Assembly (NCBI GenBank): GCA_044226725.1
Contig: JBGAGM010000002.1
Location: 115,819-179,818 of the forward strand
Source of the DNA: Ferruginibacter sp.
GTDB lineage: Bacteria > Bacteroidota > Bacteroidia > Chitinophagales > Chitinophagaceae
Length of the DNA stretch: 64,000 nucleotides
Direction of reading: 5' to 3'
The position numbers and the translations under genes were made by a program. The notes beneath the pieces are model-generated. The model had not been told where the DNA came from. It worked only from the letters and a program-made list of their open reading frames with translations, and made no database searches. Each line of letters opens with the position of its first letter. Within the stretch, counting starts at the first letter, position 1. Positions 26,444 to 31,676 of this stretch are shown here, piece by piece.

Positions 26444-27661
26444 ATGAATACGCACACTGATAAAATATCCAAAAGCGATTCTGCTTCATCAATATCCTCT
26501 GTCAATCAAAACAATGACCCGCAAAAAAAACAACTAAAAAGTTACAGGCCGGAAGCACTTAAACAAAGAAAAATACAGGAAATCATCAATGCCAGTGAGC
26601 AGGTAAACCAGGCAAGGTTCATTCAATCAATCGTTAATAATAAAAGTATAAAGCAAGTAAGAACAACAGAGGTTAGTAAAACTGCGCCTGTTGTACAAAG
26701 AACACCGAAAACATGGGAAACTAACGATGTGATTGCCAGAGCCCTTGCCCTGGAAAGAAGCGGGATTACAGAAAGTGGCAGTACCTGGGAAAAAATAAAA
26801 ACAGCCATTAATAATTACATAGCCTTTGGCCGCGACCAGTATCAGCCATTATATAATAGTGCAAATCATGTCGACCTTATATTTTCAGCAAGAACCGGAA
26901 AATTAAATGCCATCAAACTACTTATTACCAAATGGTACACTGACCATCCCATAAGGCCCTGGAACGGAGATAAAGTAAATAATATTCGGGGCATATTGCC
27001 TGAGCTGGAAAACACGATCAGAGATGAGGAAGAAGATATTATTGGCGAAAGATTTGCAAATAAGTTTTTAGTCGAAAGGCCGCCATTGGTTATTCCGCCT
27101 GAATTATCTGATGGTGTTGCGCTACAGGTTGGCAACGCAGCAAAGGCATTAAAACTTCATCAGAACTTTAATAATAATCTTCGTTTCCGGTATACAGGGG
27201 TAGGAACACCGCCTGAAGTTGGCCTTGCAGCACACCAGGGCGACTGTGGTACCCTGGCAAGGATATATATTGCTGTTGCCAATAACCTGGGTATTCCTGC
27301 TGTACTGGCAGACAGGCCCGGAAAACAACTGGTGGCGGCACAACCAATCAAAGGACGTTCCACAACAGGCAACACACATGACCAGGGCGCCTGGTATTTT
27401 CAGCAACATTTTTGGGCAGTAGCAGCCGGTACCAACTATGATATATTATTTATGCAAACCCCGCCTCCTGCTGCTATTGTATCAAACGGATCAGCCGTTT
27501 ACAGAGGTATTACTTATTACACTTTCCCGGATAATCGTTGTGTGATCGAACCTTTTGAAAAAGCTAAGTTCGGAGACCCGTCAGTTATTAAGGGTGAAGG
27601 TCGTGTTTTTGCTGATGCTGCAGCTACGCAACTGTTCATTGACGGACATATTGCCGGTTAA
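26444..27661 (+). CDS. Candidate eCIS cargo B: shared leader plus a transglutaminase-like cysteine protease/deamidase fold
   Basis: The ATG at 26444 gives MNTHTDK, as in cargo E. Leader block is RKIQEIINASEQVNQARFIQSIVN, with junction APVVQR. The C-terminal HQGDCGTLARIYIAVANNLGIPAV...QQHFWAVAAGTNYD fits a transglutaminase-core Cys/His/Asp arrangement. Confidence 0.55.
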   Translation: MNTHTDKISKSDSASSISSVNQNNDPQKKQLKSYRPEALKQRKIQEIINASEQVNQARFIQSIVNNKSIKQVRTTEVSKTAPVVQRTPKTWETNDVIARALALERSGITESGSTWEKIKTAINNYIAFGRDQYQPLYNSANHVDLIFSARTGKLNAIKLLITKWYTDHPIRPWNGDKVNNIRGILPELENTIRDEEEDIIGERFANKFLVERPPLVIPPELSDGVALQVGNAAKALKLHQNFNNNLRFRYTGVGTPPEVGLAAHQGDCGTLARIYIAVANNLGIPAVLADRPGKQLVAAQPIKGRSTTGNTHDQGAWYFQQHFWAVAAGTNYDILFMQTPPPAAIVSNGSAVYRGITYYTFPDNRCVIEPFEKAKFGDPSVIKGEGRVFADAAATQLFIDGHIAG

Positions 27662-27830
27662 CAAAGAATTTCCAACAGTTTTTTGGTGAAAAGCAGTGAA
27701 AAATATCATTGACACTACAGGCTTGTTTATCATAATATATCCGTACCTTAAGAATCAGTCATAAAATTGATGGCAACGGTAACCGGCATAATGCAACCGA
27801 TGAACCAGTTGATTAAAAAATATTTTGCTG

Positions 27831-28781
27831 ATGAACCTTTATACAGATAAAAAAAATGATGCAGGCAATCGGGCAATAGCTAATGATACTGCAGCCAGGT
27901 ATCCAATGGGGAAGAAAGTTTTTCAACTAACGCACGCATTACGGCCAGGTAATAATCAGCATCCGCTGCAGTTGTTGATAACGAGCAGTCCGAAGATACA
28001 GCAAATCAAAGCTGTTCAGCGCCTGGCAGATGAACGGAAAGAAAAAAAATTGCCCGTCGTACAACGCATGGTTGACTGGAGGGAGGAGGAAGTAGCCACT
28101 AAAAACCCGATCCAAGTTGCCATGCCTCCTTTAGATGATTGGGGATTTACCCATTTTGTTATTAACGGATCCGAAGACCAGGAAAAGGCTTTGAACGGTG
28201 CTGAATTTATTGTAGAAAAAACAAAATTAGGATTAACTGAGATTGGCGTTGCAAAAGAGCCTGAAAATTATCTTGGCACCCGAATGGAAATCCCGGTAGA
28301 TCCGCCATGGACAGCTAATGTTTCTAAATCCAAGGTTGGGGGAACATATTTTGCGGAAGCAAACGAACGTTTTAACATTGACCTTACACCGTATATGAAT
28401 GGTGTTGGGAACACGGCGTTGAGCGTGAAAGGAGTTCCCAGCGATAACACCATGGTATCGCACACACAGGAGCACGAACAACATCATGTTAATGATGATG
28501 TAAGGGCCCGGGAACAGATTGTAGATACCTGGGATAATGCTTTATATGATATGAAACAAAAGAGGGAAACTTTTTTGGGGTTCAATCCTGTACATGCACT
28601 TAAACGTCTTTATCAAAAAGCAGGGGGCACACCTGGTGAGATTGGCTCCAAATATTATAACAGGGTCAAAGAACTGGGCATTCAATACCACAACACCGAG
28701 GAAGGAAGCAAGCCCCCTTTGGCTAACATTGTAACTTCACATGACCAATCAACGATTGAGCTGCATTTTAAACCACATTAA
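27831..28781 (+). CDS. Candidate eCIS cargo C: degenerate shared leader plus a domain with an HExxH motif
   Basis: The ATG at 27831 gives MNLYTDKK. Junction is KKLPVVQR. A HEQHH (HExxH) motif is encoded at 28473..28487. The fold is otherwise unknown. Confidence 0.45.
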   Translation: MNLYTDKKNDAGNRAIANDTAARYPMGKKVFQLTHALRPGNNQHPLQLLITSSPKIQQIKAVQRLADERKEKKLPVVQRMVDWREEEVATKNPIQVAMPPLDDWGFTHFVINGSEDQEKALNGAEFIVEKTKLGLTEIGVAKEPENYLGTRMEIPVDPPWTANVSKSKVGGTYFAEANERFNIDLTPYMNGVGNTALSVKGVPSDNTMVSHTQEHEQHHVNDDVRAREQIVDTWDNALYDMKQKRETFLGFNPVHALKRLYQKAGGTPGEIGSKYYNRVKELGIQYHNTEEGSKPPLANIVTSHDQSTIELHFKPH

Positions 28782-29571: not shown

Positions 29572-29612
29572 TAGGGCTCTTTAAAATTTAAACATGGGTA
29601 TATAATTAATTA

Positions 29613-31676
29613 ATGAACACCCACACAGATAAAACAAGCGATACCAGCAGCAATGCTGTTGCTAATGCTGTGACTTTGAAGCAGGGTGCAGAGTATGAGG
29701 GCATTCAATTGAAAGATGACCGTCCCGAAACGGTCGCCCAAAGAAAAATACAGGAGGCTGCTAACAACAGTGAGCAGGCAAATCAATTAAAAGCCATACA
29801 GGCATTAGCTAATGGCAGCATGCAGGTAAAACAATTTAGAGCTGTACAAGCAGTGGTGAATGATCATACACCCAATTCAAATCGACATAAAGCAATTAAA
29901 GAAACCGTACAGGAAAAATCTAACCCTGTGCAAAGAAAATTGCAGGCCCAGGCAGACCCTGGAGAAAATAATTCCGGTCTGCCTGACAATTTAAAATCAG
30001 GCGTTGAGAACATCTCAGGTTATAGTTTAGATGATGTGAAAGTGCATTACAATTCTGATAAGCCGGCACAATTGAATGCCCATGCATATGCCCAGGGAAC
30101 TGATATACATTTAGCAAGTGGGCAGGAAAGGCATCTGCCTCATGAAGCTTGGCATGTGGTACAGCAGAAGCAGGGAAGGGTAAAGCCAACGGTGCAGATG
30201 AAGGGTGATATAGCTGTAAATGATAAAGCGGAATTGGAGACAGAAGCGGATGTAATGGGCAGGCAAGCTGTTGATATAAAAACACTACCTGTAGTTCAGC
30301 CTAAAGATGGAATTACGGCAGGTCACGAATCAGTTGCAAGTAAACAGGATAAAAGCGAAGGCAGTTTACCCGTGGTGCAAAGATTAGTAGGCTTTGAATT
30401 TGAGACCGGGTGGTATGTAGATTTTCAACAGCCTGTTGGTTTCGATGATATGGGGCAAATACCTCAACCTGTTCCGTTCAAAAAAAAAGATGTAGTAAGT
30501 CATACCAACCATGATGGGTTTAGAATGGAGGCAGATGAAGCTGAAGAAGGGCGCAGCGAGCTTGAGTTTGTAGTGAGGCCCCCGGTAGCTGAAAGCTTTG
30601 AAGGAAAGAACCGATTGGATGCAATAATGACAAATATGGAAGTTATTACTGGTGAGTTACTTGCAAAATTCGGGGCATCATTTAGTTTAGATGAAGTAAC
30701 CGGAAATGAATATGATGAGTCAACAATTGTAACACCCAGGGATGCCCAAATGAAAGCCGGCCCCCAAACAACCACAGCAGTGAAACTTGAAATGATACCC
30801 AACATACTGGGTAAAGGTATGCCCGAGCAGCCTCCTCAAAACCCGGCATTTTATGGTTTGGCAAAACTTATCGGGCAATATGTAGATCGTGGCGCATCAG
30901 AAGGAGCACCAATGTCATATCCAAAAATAATGGCAGAGCCTCTTTTGGCCCGAACTGACTTTGTTGGCCTTTTTGCTTTGATAGAACCGGAACGCAGACA
31001 ACATTATATAGCTAATCCTGATGATTGGGTATCAGATGTGTTACAGGCTGCAGGACTTGAGGCAGGAATTGCAGACCGAGATTTGCTTCACAGGGGAGTT
31101 GTAAGTGATAATGACAGTGATGAACACATGCGTCTGCGGCTTCAGATTCACAATTTCAGGAACGAACCGGATCAGCACGTTTTAGATGCCCAGGTGGTTG
31201 CTGCTACCCAAGCCTTACAAAACTACCAGTCTCCGCAAGGATTCAAAGAAAAAATCCTGTCTAAATTAAGAAACGATCCCACGCTTGACGACTTGGGTGC
31301 CATACAGGAAAGATTGCTCCGGGATAGAATGATACTCCAAGAAGAACATCAGCAATGGGAAGATGAACGTAACCAGCTTATACAACAAAAGCAAGCACTG
31401 GAAAGACATGCCGGGTTCACTGTGAGACAATGGCTTGTAGACATTCTTGCAGGAAATGATAGAATTACCGGCATCAATGATGCAGAATCAATGGGAGAAT
31501 TTGGTCAGCGTACCGAAGCCGTTGGTCAGGGAGGAGATGAAACCGCTGGTATATTTGAATGGCGGGGAGACCAAACAACAAAGATACCGCCTGGAGAATG
31601 GCGGGATTATGCTCTTGCTTTTATGACTCGTATCCTTGCCTTACACGGACACCAGGAACAAGATGGGCAACAATAA
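29613..31676 (+). CDS. Candidate eCIS cargo E: shared leader, DUF4157 domain and an unknown C-terminal domain of about 430 aa
   Basis: The protein starts MNTHTDK, with leader RKIQEAANNSEQANQLKAIQALAN. The DUF4157 core reads GLPDNLKSGVENISGYSLDDVKVHYNS...AYAQGTDIHL...HEAWHVVQQKQGRV. A second junction, LPVVQR, immediately precedes the C-terminal domain (VGFEFETGW...). Confidence 0.65.
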   Translation: MNTHTDKTSDTSSNAVANAVTLKQGAEYEGIQLKDDRPETVAQRKIQEAANNSEQANQLKAIQALANGSMQVKQFRAVQAVVNDHTPNSNRHKAIKETVQEKSNPVQRKLQAQADPGENNSGLPDNLKSGVENISGYSLDDVKVHYNSDKPAQLNAHAYAQGTDIHLASGQERHLPHEAWHVVQQKQGRVKPTVQMKGDIAVNDKAELETEADVMGRQAVDIKTLPVVQPKDGITAGHESVASKQDKSEGSLPVVQRLVGFEFETGWYVDFQQPVGFDDMGQIPQPVPFKKKDVVSHTNHDGFRMEADEAEEGRSELEFVVRPPVAESFEGKNRLDAIMTNMEVITGELLAKFGASFSLDEVTGNEYDESTIVTPRDAQMKAGPQTTTAVKLEMIPNILGKGMPEQPPQNPAFYGLAKLIGQYVDRGASEGAPMSYPKIMAEPLLARTDFVGLFALIEPERRQHYIANPDDWVSDVLQAAGLEAGIADRDLLHRGVVSDNDSDEHMRLRLQIHNFRNEPDQHVLDAQVVAATQALQNYQSPQGFKEKILSKLRNDPTLDDLGAIQERLLRDRMILQEEHQQWEDERNQLIQQKQALERHAGFTVRQWLVDILAGNDRITGINDAESMGEFGQRTEAVGQGGDETAGIFEWRGDQTTKIPPGEWRDYALAFMTRILALHGHQEQDGQQ

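Follow-up and report, generated by a model that had tools for sequence, protein, structure and literature searches.

A phi-Q-R peptide at domain junctions of contractile injection system cargo as a candidate site of DUF4157 binding or cleavage

The window (the whole 64 kb stretch of DNA analysed) encodes an extracellular contractile injection system (eCIS) of Chitinophagaceae-like type, and its cargo proteins carry a recurrent peptide, phi-Q-R, a short linear motif conserved in eCIS cargo associated with DUF4157. In its usual form, [P/V/T/I]-[V/I/L]-Q-R, the next residue is K, A, V or L, and K, M or L sometimes stands in for R. It lies in flexible linkers at the very edges of modules, namely after a leader of ~80 aa, on both flanks of the DUF4157 core and directly ahead of the variable toxin domain. 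It recurs in hundreds of relatives and marks most joints between leader, DUF4157 and toxin domains. The motif strings were not found in any paper of our literature search, and the motif is the strongest candidate so far for where DUF4157 binds or cuts its cargo. We assign a probability of about 0.4 to the reading that the peptide is recognised by the zincin-like DUF4157 module and cleaved at or next to Q-R.

Results

The cargo array A to E consists of five genes with a common N-terminal leader, and the window also holds a second DUF4157 cargo set (Table 1). The leader of B was matched by the leader HMM and its C-terminal domain by Pfam Transglut_core (E = 2e-5); the true start of B is likely the ATG at 26444 rather than the TTG, and homologue P0010 begins MNTHTDK. 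Protein E is composed of the leader (aa 1-83), the DUF4157 core (aa ~120-190) and a C-terminal domain from L258, while the C-terminus of T1163 gave a Toxin-deaminase match (E = 3.5e-4) below the cut-off. The AAA+ ATPase beside the array, with 592 relatives in genome contigs, is presumed to be the cargo loader, a role described in the PROCIS preprint. The leader family comprised 1945 representative clusters, and DUF4157 was encoded within 10 kb in 12 of 15 related loci bearing leader ORFs.

Table 1. Cargo genes, motif sites and DUF4157 elements in the window
Feature	Position	Strand	Description	Basis
Cargo A, 285 aa	25412..26269	+	leader, C-terminal domain without assignment	
A AVQRK	25532-25546	+	leader motif	translation
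A KPLQLY	25706-25723	+	junction variant	translation
Cargo B, 410 aa from TTG	26429..27661	+	leader, transglutaminase-like C-terminal domain	
B APVVQR	26684-26701	+	directly 5' of C-terminal domain TPKTWE	translation
Cargo C, 318 aa	27825..28781	+	leader, C-terminal domain without assignment, containing HEQHH	
C LPVVQR	28050-28067	+	followed at once by MVDWRE	translation
Cargo D, 220 aa	28909..29571	+	leader, small C-terminal domain	
D QVAQLE	29125-29142	+	junction variant	translation
Cargo E, 687 aa	29613..31676	+	leader, DUF4157, ExEAD helix, disordered linker, large C-terminal domain	Pfam PF13699, E = 3e-10
E NPVQRK	29922-29939	+	disordered linker ~15 aa ahead of DUF4157 core	translation
E HEAWH	30141-30155	+	HExxH	translation
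E ExEAD helix	30231-30251	+		
E LPVVQP	30285-30302	+	near-copy of LPVVQR, linker after ExEAD helix	
E LPVVQR	30366-30383	+	end of disordered linker, then LVGFEFETGW, first beta-strand	translation
AAA+ ATPase	31726..33087	-	eCIS ATPase (Afp15/Pvc15/Alg15-like)	Pfam AAA, E = 2e-29
P175	56297..56824	-	stand-alone DUF4157 protein	Pfam PF13699, E = 4.6e-9
P175 ExEAD helix	56327-56347	-		
P175 HEAWH	56423-56437	-	HExxH	
P175 TPVQRK	56615-56632	-	motif	translation
P175 LQGKF-TPVQRK	56615-56647	-		
T1163	57579..61070	-	DUF4157 cargo, long linker, weak deaminase-like C-terminus	Pfam PF13699, E = 1.6e-29
T1163 LIQK	60225-60242	-	junction variant	
T1163 HELTH	60273-60287	-	DUF4157 core	
T1163 QLQRK	60552-60566	-	motif	translation
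T1163 NIQRKC	60594-60611	-	phi-QRK-CxxC acidic element	translation
T1163 KIQRKC	60678-60695	-	phi-QRK-CxxC acidic element	translation
T1163 IQPK-ExEAD helix	60762-60821	-		
P655	61109..63076	-	DUF4157, then C-terminal domain	Pfam PF13699, E = 1.9e-27
P655 NLIQRF	62378-62395	-	junction motif	translation
P655 HELVH	62420-62434	-	DUF4157 core	
P655 VMQTKA	62702-62719	-		
P655 IQPK-ExEAD helix	62843-62902	-		

The translations placed APVVQR of B and LPVVQR of C and E exactly where the first-pass annotation had reported them, and the related motifs that it listed (NPVQRK, TPVQRK, KIQRKC, NIQRKC, QLQRK and NLIQRF) were all present. Its claim that the motif sits at every module junction held for B, C and E, but not for A (PLQL), D (VAQL) or the junction after the DUF4157 core of T1163 (LIQK). 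The third motif position at homologous junctions was R, K, M or L: a homologue of A (P0037) has TIQR in place of PLQL, a homologue of B (P0019) has VAQM ahead of the same TPxxW start, and VAQL of D is kept in homologue P0035. The near-copy LPVVQP of E lies 27 aa upstream of LPVVQR.

Given how short and degenerate the motif is, and given that VVQR, VQRK, IQRK, LQRK and IQRF had been pooled in its first description, it might have been a matter of chance or annotation, that is, of tripeptides picked by eye from low-complexity sequence. The window counts spoke against this. Across all six reading frames of the 64 kb window, PVVQR was confined to its three sites in B, C and E. The cargo proteins, 3913 residues in total, contain 12 matches to [VIL]QR, each within the first 300 aa of its protein, whereas the 15655 residues encoded by the other genes contain 6, which fall inside ordinary globular proteins (odds ratio 8, Fisher p = 2e-5). 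The PVVQR codons differ among the three copies (GCGCCTGTTGTACAAAGA, TTGCCCGTCGTACAACGC and TTACCCGTGGTGCAAAGA). The copies vary at wobble positions, which rules out a repeat at the DNA level; this codon-level divergence shows that the peptide, and not its coding DNA, is under selection.

The first-pass annotation had proposed that enrichment at domain boundaries be sought over a wider family, and the outcome was decisively positive. The E-type toxin domain was compared in 40 homologues of 26-52% identity from several lineages, with Massilia, Dyella and Algoriphagus among the named sources. Although their upstream linkers could not be aligned, [VI]xQR stood directly ahead of the conserved first strand xVGFEFETGW in 38 of them, and the pattern was also present in five E-type homologues without DUF4157. 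In HELTH-type DUF4157 proteins (n = 116), [VILM]Q[RK] had two peaks upstream of HExxH, at about -110 and -95 and thus just ahead of the core, and one downstream, at +10 to +24. No copy lay inside the core, the stretch from -90 to +9 being empty; the motif lay 9-35 aa past HExxH in 76 of the 116, against 2.9 expected. NLIQRF of P655, 14 aa past HExxH, falls at this family peak. HEAWH-type proteins (n = 142) showed a peak at -65 from HExxH (78 sites) and a second at +60 to +74, and the motif was absent within their DUF4157 core. In 84 leader representatives without DUF4157, the sequence past the leader was richer, relative to expectation, in IQR (17 vs 2.1 expected) and VQR (16 vs 2.2) than in any other tripeptide, an enrichment of 8-fold. 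These expected counts came from per-protein shuffles that preserved composition. Together with the window counts, these results refuted the chance reading, to which we give practically no weight.

It is also conceivable, if improbable, that nothing recognises the motif specifically. It would then be a conserved C-terminus of the leader or linker, inherited by common descent, or a generic cap between a low-complexity Q/N/K-rich segment and the folded domain after it, and it might ease modular swapping of toxin domains, as is supposed of demarcation motifs in other polymorphic toxins. The leaders of A to E are paralogous and their family is large, so some recurrence is expected by homology alone; the leader is rich in Q and K/R, which raises the Q-R background, and short conserved peptides before a variable C-terminus are described as common in polymorphic toxins by Zhang et al. 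2012 (PMC3482391). However, the motif survived where flanking linkers were unalignable or the N-terminal architecture was wholly different, it flanked DUF4157 at fixed distances in the HELTH-type subfamily, which lacks the leader, and its enrichment held against the composition-preserving shuffles. In the leader representatives it also tended to lie close to the point at which amino-acid composition changes (14 vs 1.9 for randomly placed sites), near which [VIL]Q followed by another residue was about seven times rarer per site. The motif DNA differs between paralogues and thus does not serve as a recombination anchor.

HExxH is retained in all four DUF4157 domains, as had been claimed, in the forms HEAWH (E and P175), HELTH (T1163) and HELVH (P655). 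The HExxH glutamate and the ExEAD (ExxxD) helix were 90-100% conserved in both subfamilies and in distant lineages, and DUF4157 thus keeps a full gluzincin-like residue set. In the AlphaFold models of E (pLDDT 83.8) and T1163, the motifs lie exposed in low-confidence, predicted-disordered linkers abutting confident folds; in E, LPVVQR (aa 252-257) is followed at aa 258/260 by the opening strand of the C-terminal domain. A related AQRK falls within the predicted leader helix. The motif was not docked at the active site in the E model, as judged without contact inspection. Foldseek with the DUF4157 model found no peptidase match, and among solved proteases the closest by sequence was BepA (family M48), at only E = 0.2.

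Discussion

The first-pass annotation had suggested a proteolytic maturation site, which is plausible as one of two live readings: the linker position and the catalytic residue set agree with it, whereas the undocked model and the lack of a significant peptidase match in these searches do not. In the cleavage reading, a motif peptide such as KTAPVVQRTPKTW would be a candidate for binding or cutting by DUF4157. The recognising domain would act in cis in E, T1163 and P655, where it belongs to the same polypeptide, and in trans on A to D, where the stand-alone P175 would presumably be co-loaded. Recognition may then lead to a cut at or beside Q-R. If the bond were Q|R, the long side chains of R, K, M and L would all suit the S1' pocket of a metalloprotease. 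Since AAA+-dependent loading into the tube lumen requires the leader, the cut would most plausibly follow loading or injection, and the toxin domain could thereby be freed of leader and adaptor parts. On the other hand, a cut at AQRK in the modelled leader helix would serve no obvious purpose, and two E-type cargo genes that carry the motif lack a DUF4157 gene in the readable DNA (~10 kb downstream and <1 kb upstream, where the contigs end). AlgoCIS still loads after DUF4157 is deleted, HExxH mutants of its protein Cgo1 showed unimpaired killing of E. coli, a Streptomyces DUF4157 protein behaves as a binding adaptor, and direct evidence for cleavage was not found in the literature search.

The other live reading, in our view only a little less probable, is an uncleaved docking motif. 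DUF4157, its protease-like cleft merely holding the peptide, would be an adaptor through which cargo is tethered at the spike or tube initiator, or else the AAA+ loader or tube lumen would bind the motif, which would mark the end of each threaded unit. The position and accessibility of the motif fit docking as well as cleavage, and there is some experimental support for a non-cleaving adaptor role. [quoted passage not shown] Loading of AlgoCIS needs the N-terminal domain and the AAA+ protein Alg15. Several motif copies per protein, and the tandem EEEELLQGKFxx[AIV]QR units seen in other phyla, would suit multivalent binding. Against docking, pure binding pseudo-enzymes usually lose catalytic residues such as those conserved here, a peptide that directly precedes each of a set of unrelated toxin folds resembles a typical processing site more than a tether, and DUF4157 is dispensable for AlgoCIS loading, which persists after its deletion.

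Cleavage by DUF4157 had already been proposed by Zhang et al. 2012 (PMC3482391). Their account of this family presents DUF4157 (PF13699, eCIS_core) as the PVC-metallopeptidase, with zincin HHpred matches, and proposes an autoproteolytic releasing peptidase that would free the toxin in the course of export or afterwards. There, highly variable C-terminal toxins follow a constant N-terminal module with HExxH, and E, T1163, P655 and P175 of the window carry the same domain. That account describes no cleavage site or flanking motif, whereas phi-Q-R was mapped here to either side of the core and ahead of the toxins, including those of peptidase-less cargo.

AlgoCIS Cgo1/Cgo2 and PVC Pdp1/Pnf share the architecture found here (N-terminal domain, DUF4157, C-terminal domain), with a largely disordered leader needed for AAA+-dependent loading of the tube lumen. 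In those studies the N-terminal domain was system-specific and no cross-system motif was reported, whereas the leader of the present cargo is a large sequence family ending in a defined motif. Sle2 resembles P175 in being a stand-alone DUF4157 protein encoded beside DUF4157-less cargo, and it binds the N-terminal region of its cargo Sle1; unlike the present leader, that region, which is related to tape-measure proteins, forms a long coiled coil (PMC13277306).

More distant parallels can be drawn. N-terminal targeting peptides sending passengers into a phage-derived container, together with a co-packaged protease acting on a tiny consensus site, would recall phage T4. Its internal proteins carry a capsid-targeting sequence that the gp21 prohead protease cuts off at L/I-x-E. 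The container (capsid vs tail tube), protease class and motif all differ, and the likeness would be an analogy at the level of mechanism only. Demarcation motifs directly before a variable C-terminal toxin domain are represented by VENN in CdiA, which lies within a conserved pretoxin domain, and by DPxGL in Rhs, which is part of an aspartyl autoprotease inside the Rhs cage. Phi-Q-R is likewise a short conserved peptide directly ahead of a variable toxin domain, but it lies in disordered linkers, recurs at several junctions per protein and is conserved as peptide but not as DNA.

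The motif in the cargo proteins of the window

The cargo proteins of the window, which are those of the five-gene array A-E, the stand-alone DUF4157 protein P175 and the DUF4157 cargo proteins T1163 and P655, carried a short hydrophobic-Gln-Arg motif (phi-Q-R, often PVVQR) at the joints between leader, DUF4157 and toxin modules. All the motifs and coordinates cited in the first-pass annotation, together with four HExxH motifs, were reproduced by translation. The motif was present at the junctions named there, while its assignment to every module junction was too broad, as A has PLQL, D has a VAQL variant, T1163 carries LIQK after the DUF4157 core, and E carries an additional LPVVQP.

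The six-frame translation of the window contained three copies of PVVQR, all at the junctions already named. The pattern [VIL]QR was found 12 times in 3913 cargo residues versus six times in 15655 residues elsewhere, corresponding to an eight-fold enrichment (Fisher p = 2e-5). All 12 cargo sites were within the first 300 residues, and the six non-cargo sites were all within ordinary globular proteins. A chance origin of the pattern is excluded. The three PVVQR copies differed at most wobble positions and were flanked by unrelated DNA. The use of different codons indicated that selection acts on the peptide, not on the DNA, and ruled out a DNA repeat or recombination anchor such as a VENN-like demarcation motif. 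The motif can be likened to the demarcation motifs of CdiA and Rhs toxins, but without their feature of a recombination anchor.

Coordinates of the cargo genes and associated features (window positions unless a locus of another genome is named)
Feature	Position	Strand	Remark
Cargo A	25412-26269	+	leader at N-terminus
Leader of A	25412-25660
Cargo B	26429-27661	+	leader; transglutaminase-like C-terminus (Pfam)
Leader of B	26444-26680
Cargo C	27825-28781	+	leader at N-terminus
Leader of C	27831-28045
HExxH-like HEQHH in C	28473-28487		aa 217
Cargo D	28909-29571	+	leader at N-terminus
Leader of D	28909-29140
HExxH-like HEGMH in D	29314-29328		aa 136
Cargo E	29613-31676	+	leader; PF13699
Leader of E	29613-29860
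ExEAD helix of E	30231-30251
C-terminal domain of E	30384-31676		aa 258-687
P175, T1163 and P655	56.3-63.1 kb	-	second cargo set
ExEAD helix of P175	56327-56347
177-aa ORF	57049-57582		candidate immunity protein
Cys-rich QRK element of T1163	60594-60695		aa 126-159
ExEAD helix of T1163	60762-60782		EYEQEAD
ExEAD helix of P655	62843-62863
Motif-bearing peptide			candidate DUF4157 substrate, KTAPVVQRTPKTW
Motif-bearing peptide			candidate DUF4157 substrate, GSLPVVQRLVGFE
Tandem-repeat cargo ORF	L045 9601-11193
Tandem-repeat cargo ORFs	L058 15432-16535 and 16576-18180
Stand-alone DUF4157 ORFs with leader-only ORFs	L057 9067-9984; L072 53-927; L075 9055-9964
E-type cargo genes	L081 778-2334; L083 886-2862		DUF4157 absent

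The shared N-terminal leader

The proteins A-E shared a leader of about 80 aa with the consensus MNTHxDK..., followed by FQFxDNRPEAxAQRKLQE and then by NNSPQVxQLxAxQxMA repeats. No Pfam model covered the leader, and NCBIfam gave no credible leader or cargo model, with one spurious match far below the cut-off. A word-indexed search with the leader alignment returned no matches owing to insufficient sensitivity, as 1945 representative clusters were recovered by exhaustive profile searching at E <= 1e-3, of which 482 reached E <= 1e-10. Almost all of the 150 best representatives, which were 103-1361 aa long and had diverse C-terminal parts, matched from their first residue; the leader thus occupies the very N-terminus of cargo proteins that are otherwise unrelated. 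Among these 150, 66 had DUF4157 of the HEAWH type, the subfamily of E and P175, and 71 held two or three leader copies, typically in the order leader-DUF4157-leader-toxin. In the AlphaFold model of E, aa 1-33 of the leader were disordered and aa 38-83 formed three helices (pLDDT 60-80), the AQRK sequence being inside the first predicted helix.

The organisation of these leader proteins agrees with the published architecture of AlgoCIS cargo, which combines a loading domain at the N-terminus with DUF4157 and an effector at the C-terminus. The N-terminal domain and an AAA+ protein are needed for loading in AlgoCIS, in which DUF4157 is dispensable, and it is only in the cargo of AlgoCIS and PVC that an N-terminal sequence has been demonstrated to be both necessary and sufficient for loading. 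In eCIS loci of Nitrospirota, Desulfobacterales and Manganitrophaceae, a stand-alone DUF4157 ORF of about 180 aa and a leader-only ORF were located directly upstream of the AAA+ ATPase; these leader-only ORFs were about 80-100 aa long and had EEEELMQGKF-type repeats at the end.

Conservation of the motif across the cargo family

The enrichment of the motif at domain boundaries was also borne out in the wider family by four independent tests. Downstream of the leader in the 84 leader representatives without DUF4157, IQR and VQR were the two most enriched tripeptides (17 versus 2.1 expected and 16 versus 2.2 expected, respectively), and QRV was enriched as well. The sites in these proteins were at the end of a Q/N-rich segment just before the variable part, a position occupied by [IV]Q[KML] in other leader-family members. 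A change-point in amino-acid composition, a crude measure, was found at most 5 aa from the strict motif in 14 of 73 proteins, compared to 1.9 by random placement.

Homologues of the C-terminal domain of E (n = 40, 26-52% identity, with Massilia, Dyella and Algoriphagus among the named sources) had [VI]xQR immediately before the first strand, xVGFEFETGW, in 38 cases, while the 25 residues upstream of the junction were unalignable. The same pattern was seen in five E-type homologues with short N-termini and without DUF4157.

In the HELTH-type proteins (n = 116), to which T1163 and P655 belong, [VILM]Q[RK] peaked about 110 and 95 aa before HExxH, was absent from -90 to +9, and rose again at +10 to +24; the motif was located 9-35 aa after HExxH in 76 of them, versus 2.9 expected from shuffles. 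T1163 (LIQK at +16) and P655 (LIQR at +14) agreed with this pattern. The HEAWH-type proteins (n = 142) showed a sharp peak at -65, corresponding to P[IV]Q[KR]K before NNTGLPD, no motif in the core, and another peak at +60 to +74. The third residue was exchanged among R, M and L at homologous junctions, as seen in VVQR of B versus VAQM of its homologue P0019, and PLQL of A versus TIQR of its homologue P0037. Family-wide, R after [VI]Q was 7.8 times more frequent than expected, with M, P and K enriched too. The eCIS cargo is punctuated at the boundaries of its modules by this genuine and conserved short linear motif, which separates the constant N-terminal modules from the variable toxin domain.

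Pseudomonadota cargo contained tandem EEEELLQGKFxx[AIV]QR[QE] repeats between the leader and DUF4157, and P175 had one copy of an EEEELLQGKF-type unit (EEEKALQGKFTPVQRK).

Structural context of the motif

The AlphaFold model of E (pLDDT 83.8) had a disordered segment at aa 83-114 holding NPVQRK, followed by the confident DUF4157 core at aa ~120-190 and the ExEAD helix, a conserved helix of DUF4157 proteins, at aa 206-221. A second disordered linker was at aa 224-256. LPVVQR (aa 252-257) is the last element of this linker, since the C-terminal domain has its first strand from aa 258/260 onward. In the model of the T1163 N-terminal part, the ExEAD helix and the core were confident, and the Cys-rich QRK elements and the post-core LIQK were of low confidence. 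The pLDDT was below 50-60 at NPVQRK, LPVVQP/LPVVQR and LIQK and above 90 in the adjoining modules, and the motifs are thus accessible linker elements that do not belong to a fold.

A structural part in the DUF4157 or toxin fold was not supported, given the low pLDDT at the motifs and the unrelated toxin folds behind them. A purely historical or structural origin of the motif is improbable, as it is retained even where the linkers defy alignment and where the N-terminal architecture differs.

The C-terminal domain of E, belonging to the 'VGFEFETGW' family, had a confident AlphaFold fold. Foldseek comparison of the full E model with the PDB gave no match at E <= 0.001 (best E = 0.2). This toxin-like domain is widespread.

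DUF4157 as a candidate peptidase

The DUF4157 domain (PF13699, now eCIS_core) was detected in E, P175, T1163 and P655 with scores of 40.5, 36.8, 102.3 and 95.6 bits, respectively (gathering cut-off 22), and the HExxHxxQ signature was present in all four as HEAWHVVQQ, HEAWHVAQQ, HELTHVVQQ and HELVHTIQQ. HExxH including the catalytic Glu and the ExEAD helix were 90-100% conserved in both subfamilies; the helix was conserved about as strongly as HExxH, with one Glu invariant in the HELTH type. HExxH with ExxxD is the signature of gluzincins. In the HEAWH subfamily the ExEAD helix follows HExxH at a distance of about 30 aa, and in the two HELTH-type proteins of the window it precedes HExxH by about 140-165 aa, an arrangement that, judged from sequence, looks like a permutation of the gluzincin helix bearing the third zinc ligand.

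The locus, DUF4157 and the hypothesis of a releasing peptidase are already known. Zhang 2012 (PMC3482391), in its treatment of this domain, described the HExxHxxQ-E signature with the Glu on a further helix and HHpred matches to zincins, and proposed the domain as an autoproteolytic releaser of PVC toxins. Our structural and profile searches gave only a weak match of the DUF4157 profile to BepA (M48) among PDB sequences (E = 0.2), confined to the NAxA...HExxH stretch. No Foldseek hit for the T1163 N-terminal model was better than E = 3.9, the PDB matches to the E core used as a single query sequence were all spurious, and a permissive Pfam scan (E <= 10) for M48-like matches returned PF13699 only, plus a sub-threshold DUF2125 on P175.

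T1163 also contained a phi-QRK-C-x-x-C element followed by an acidic run (IQRKCAxCEEEE). The element was at least 90% conserved in HELTH-type proteins, between the ExEAD helix and the core, and was often duplicated; it could be a metal binder or a latency element similar to a cysteine switch.

In the window, A-D are accompanied by the DUF4157 proteins E and P175, and DUF4157 was found within 10 kb in 12 of the 15 related loci that had leader ORFs. The E-type cargo genes at L081 and L083, which lack DUF4157, had housekeeping neighbours downstream, and no eCIS or DUF4157 gene was found in about 10 kb downstream or in the <1 kb upstream to the contig ends. These are apparently orphan cargo genes located outside the injection-system operon, and their context is uninformative because both are <1 kb from contig ends.

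Possible role of the motif

The best-supported interpretation is that the motif serves as a recognition peptide for the DUF4157 module, whether in cis or in trans. As to the outcome of this recognition, we tentatively regard cleavage at the motif as likelier than docking without cleavage. Docking is the main rival and seems rather unlikely to us. HExxH is conserved together with its catalytic Glu, and in the AlgoCIS study HExxH mutations left Cgo1 killing of E. coli unimpaired; no report of cargo cleavage or DUF4157 peptidase activity was found in the eCIS literature examined. Other eCIS papers call the role of DUF4157 mysterious or elusive, and a 2026 PROCIS preprint goes no further than suggesting that it may assist loading as an accessory or have a role associated with the cargo.

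For recognition followed by cleavage, a further-reaching reading is that phi-Q-R(K) is a specific processing code of DUF4157 and that the cargo proteins are pro-toxins, to which we assign a joint probability of roughly 0.3. DUF4157 would then be a minimal gluzincin, with the third-ligand helix apparently upstream of the core in one subfamily, and would be loaded and injected along with its substrates. The eCIS cargo would resemble small polyproteins of leader, peptidase, leader and toxin that are cut only after delivery, and the stand-alone DUF4157 protein would be a shared trans-acting maturase for the array of leader-toxin genes. Cleavage after loading or injection would be the most sensible timing because the leader is presumably required for loading. 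The scissile bond may be that between Q and R, a placement that would be consistent with a third position varying among R, K, M and L. Trypsin-based particle proteomics would miss a cut after R, since it looks tryptic. The motif can be likened to the sites at which the short targeting peptides of phage T4 internal proteins are cleaved.

A literal literature search for the motif strings returned unrelated papers only, although a description in other words is possible, and no such motif was described in the eCIS literature examined. Among the markers of eCIS cargo, DUF4157 is the most specific, and a family-wide motif flanking it and preceding the toxin modules makes the releasing-peptidase idea of 2012 simply testable by experiment. 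The motif also aids annotation, as it shows the leader end and the start of the effector domain in cargo proteins that number in the thousands and otherwise lack annotation. If cleavage does occur, the motif would explain how toxins shed the loading sequence and would be directly relevant to fusions of foreign payloads with such loading sequences.

Gene content of the locus

The locus was of the Bacteroidota type with a GC content of about 41%. The core gene set was complete on the minus strand at about 31.7-50.9 kb of the window by Pfam, and included an AAA+ ATPase, the CIS tape measure protein (1404 aa), gp25, a VgrG-like OB domain, CIS_tube, two gp19 tube proteins and the sheath (Phage_sheath_1C, two Phage_T4_gp19, CIS_tube, GPW_gp25, Phage_base_V, CIS_TMP at E = 6e-118, and AAA). 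[quoted passage not shown] Genome contigs yielded 592 confirmed relatives of the ATPase, the closest being in a Chitinophagaceae MAG (82% identity) and in Sediminibacterium genomes and MAGs (71-78%), and the ATPase gene is the point toward which the plus-strand genes A-E converge.

The C-terminus of T1163 was weakly deaminase-like, and the 177-aa ORF, a candidate immunity gene without family match, overlapped the T1163 stop codon. HExxH-like pentapeptides were present in the C-terminal domains of C and D, which might be metallopeptidase-type effectors, or the pentapeptides might be coincidental.
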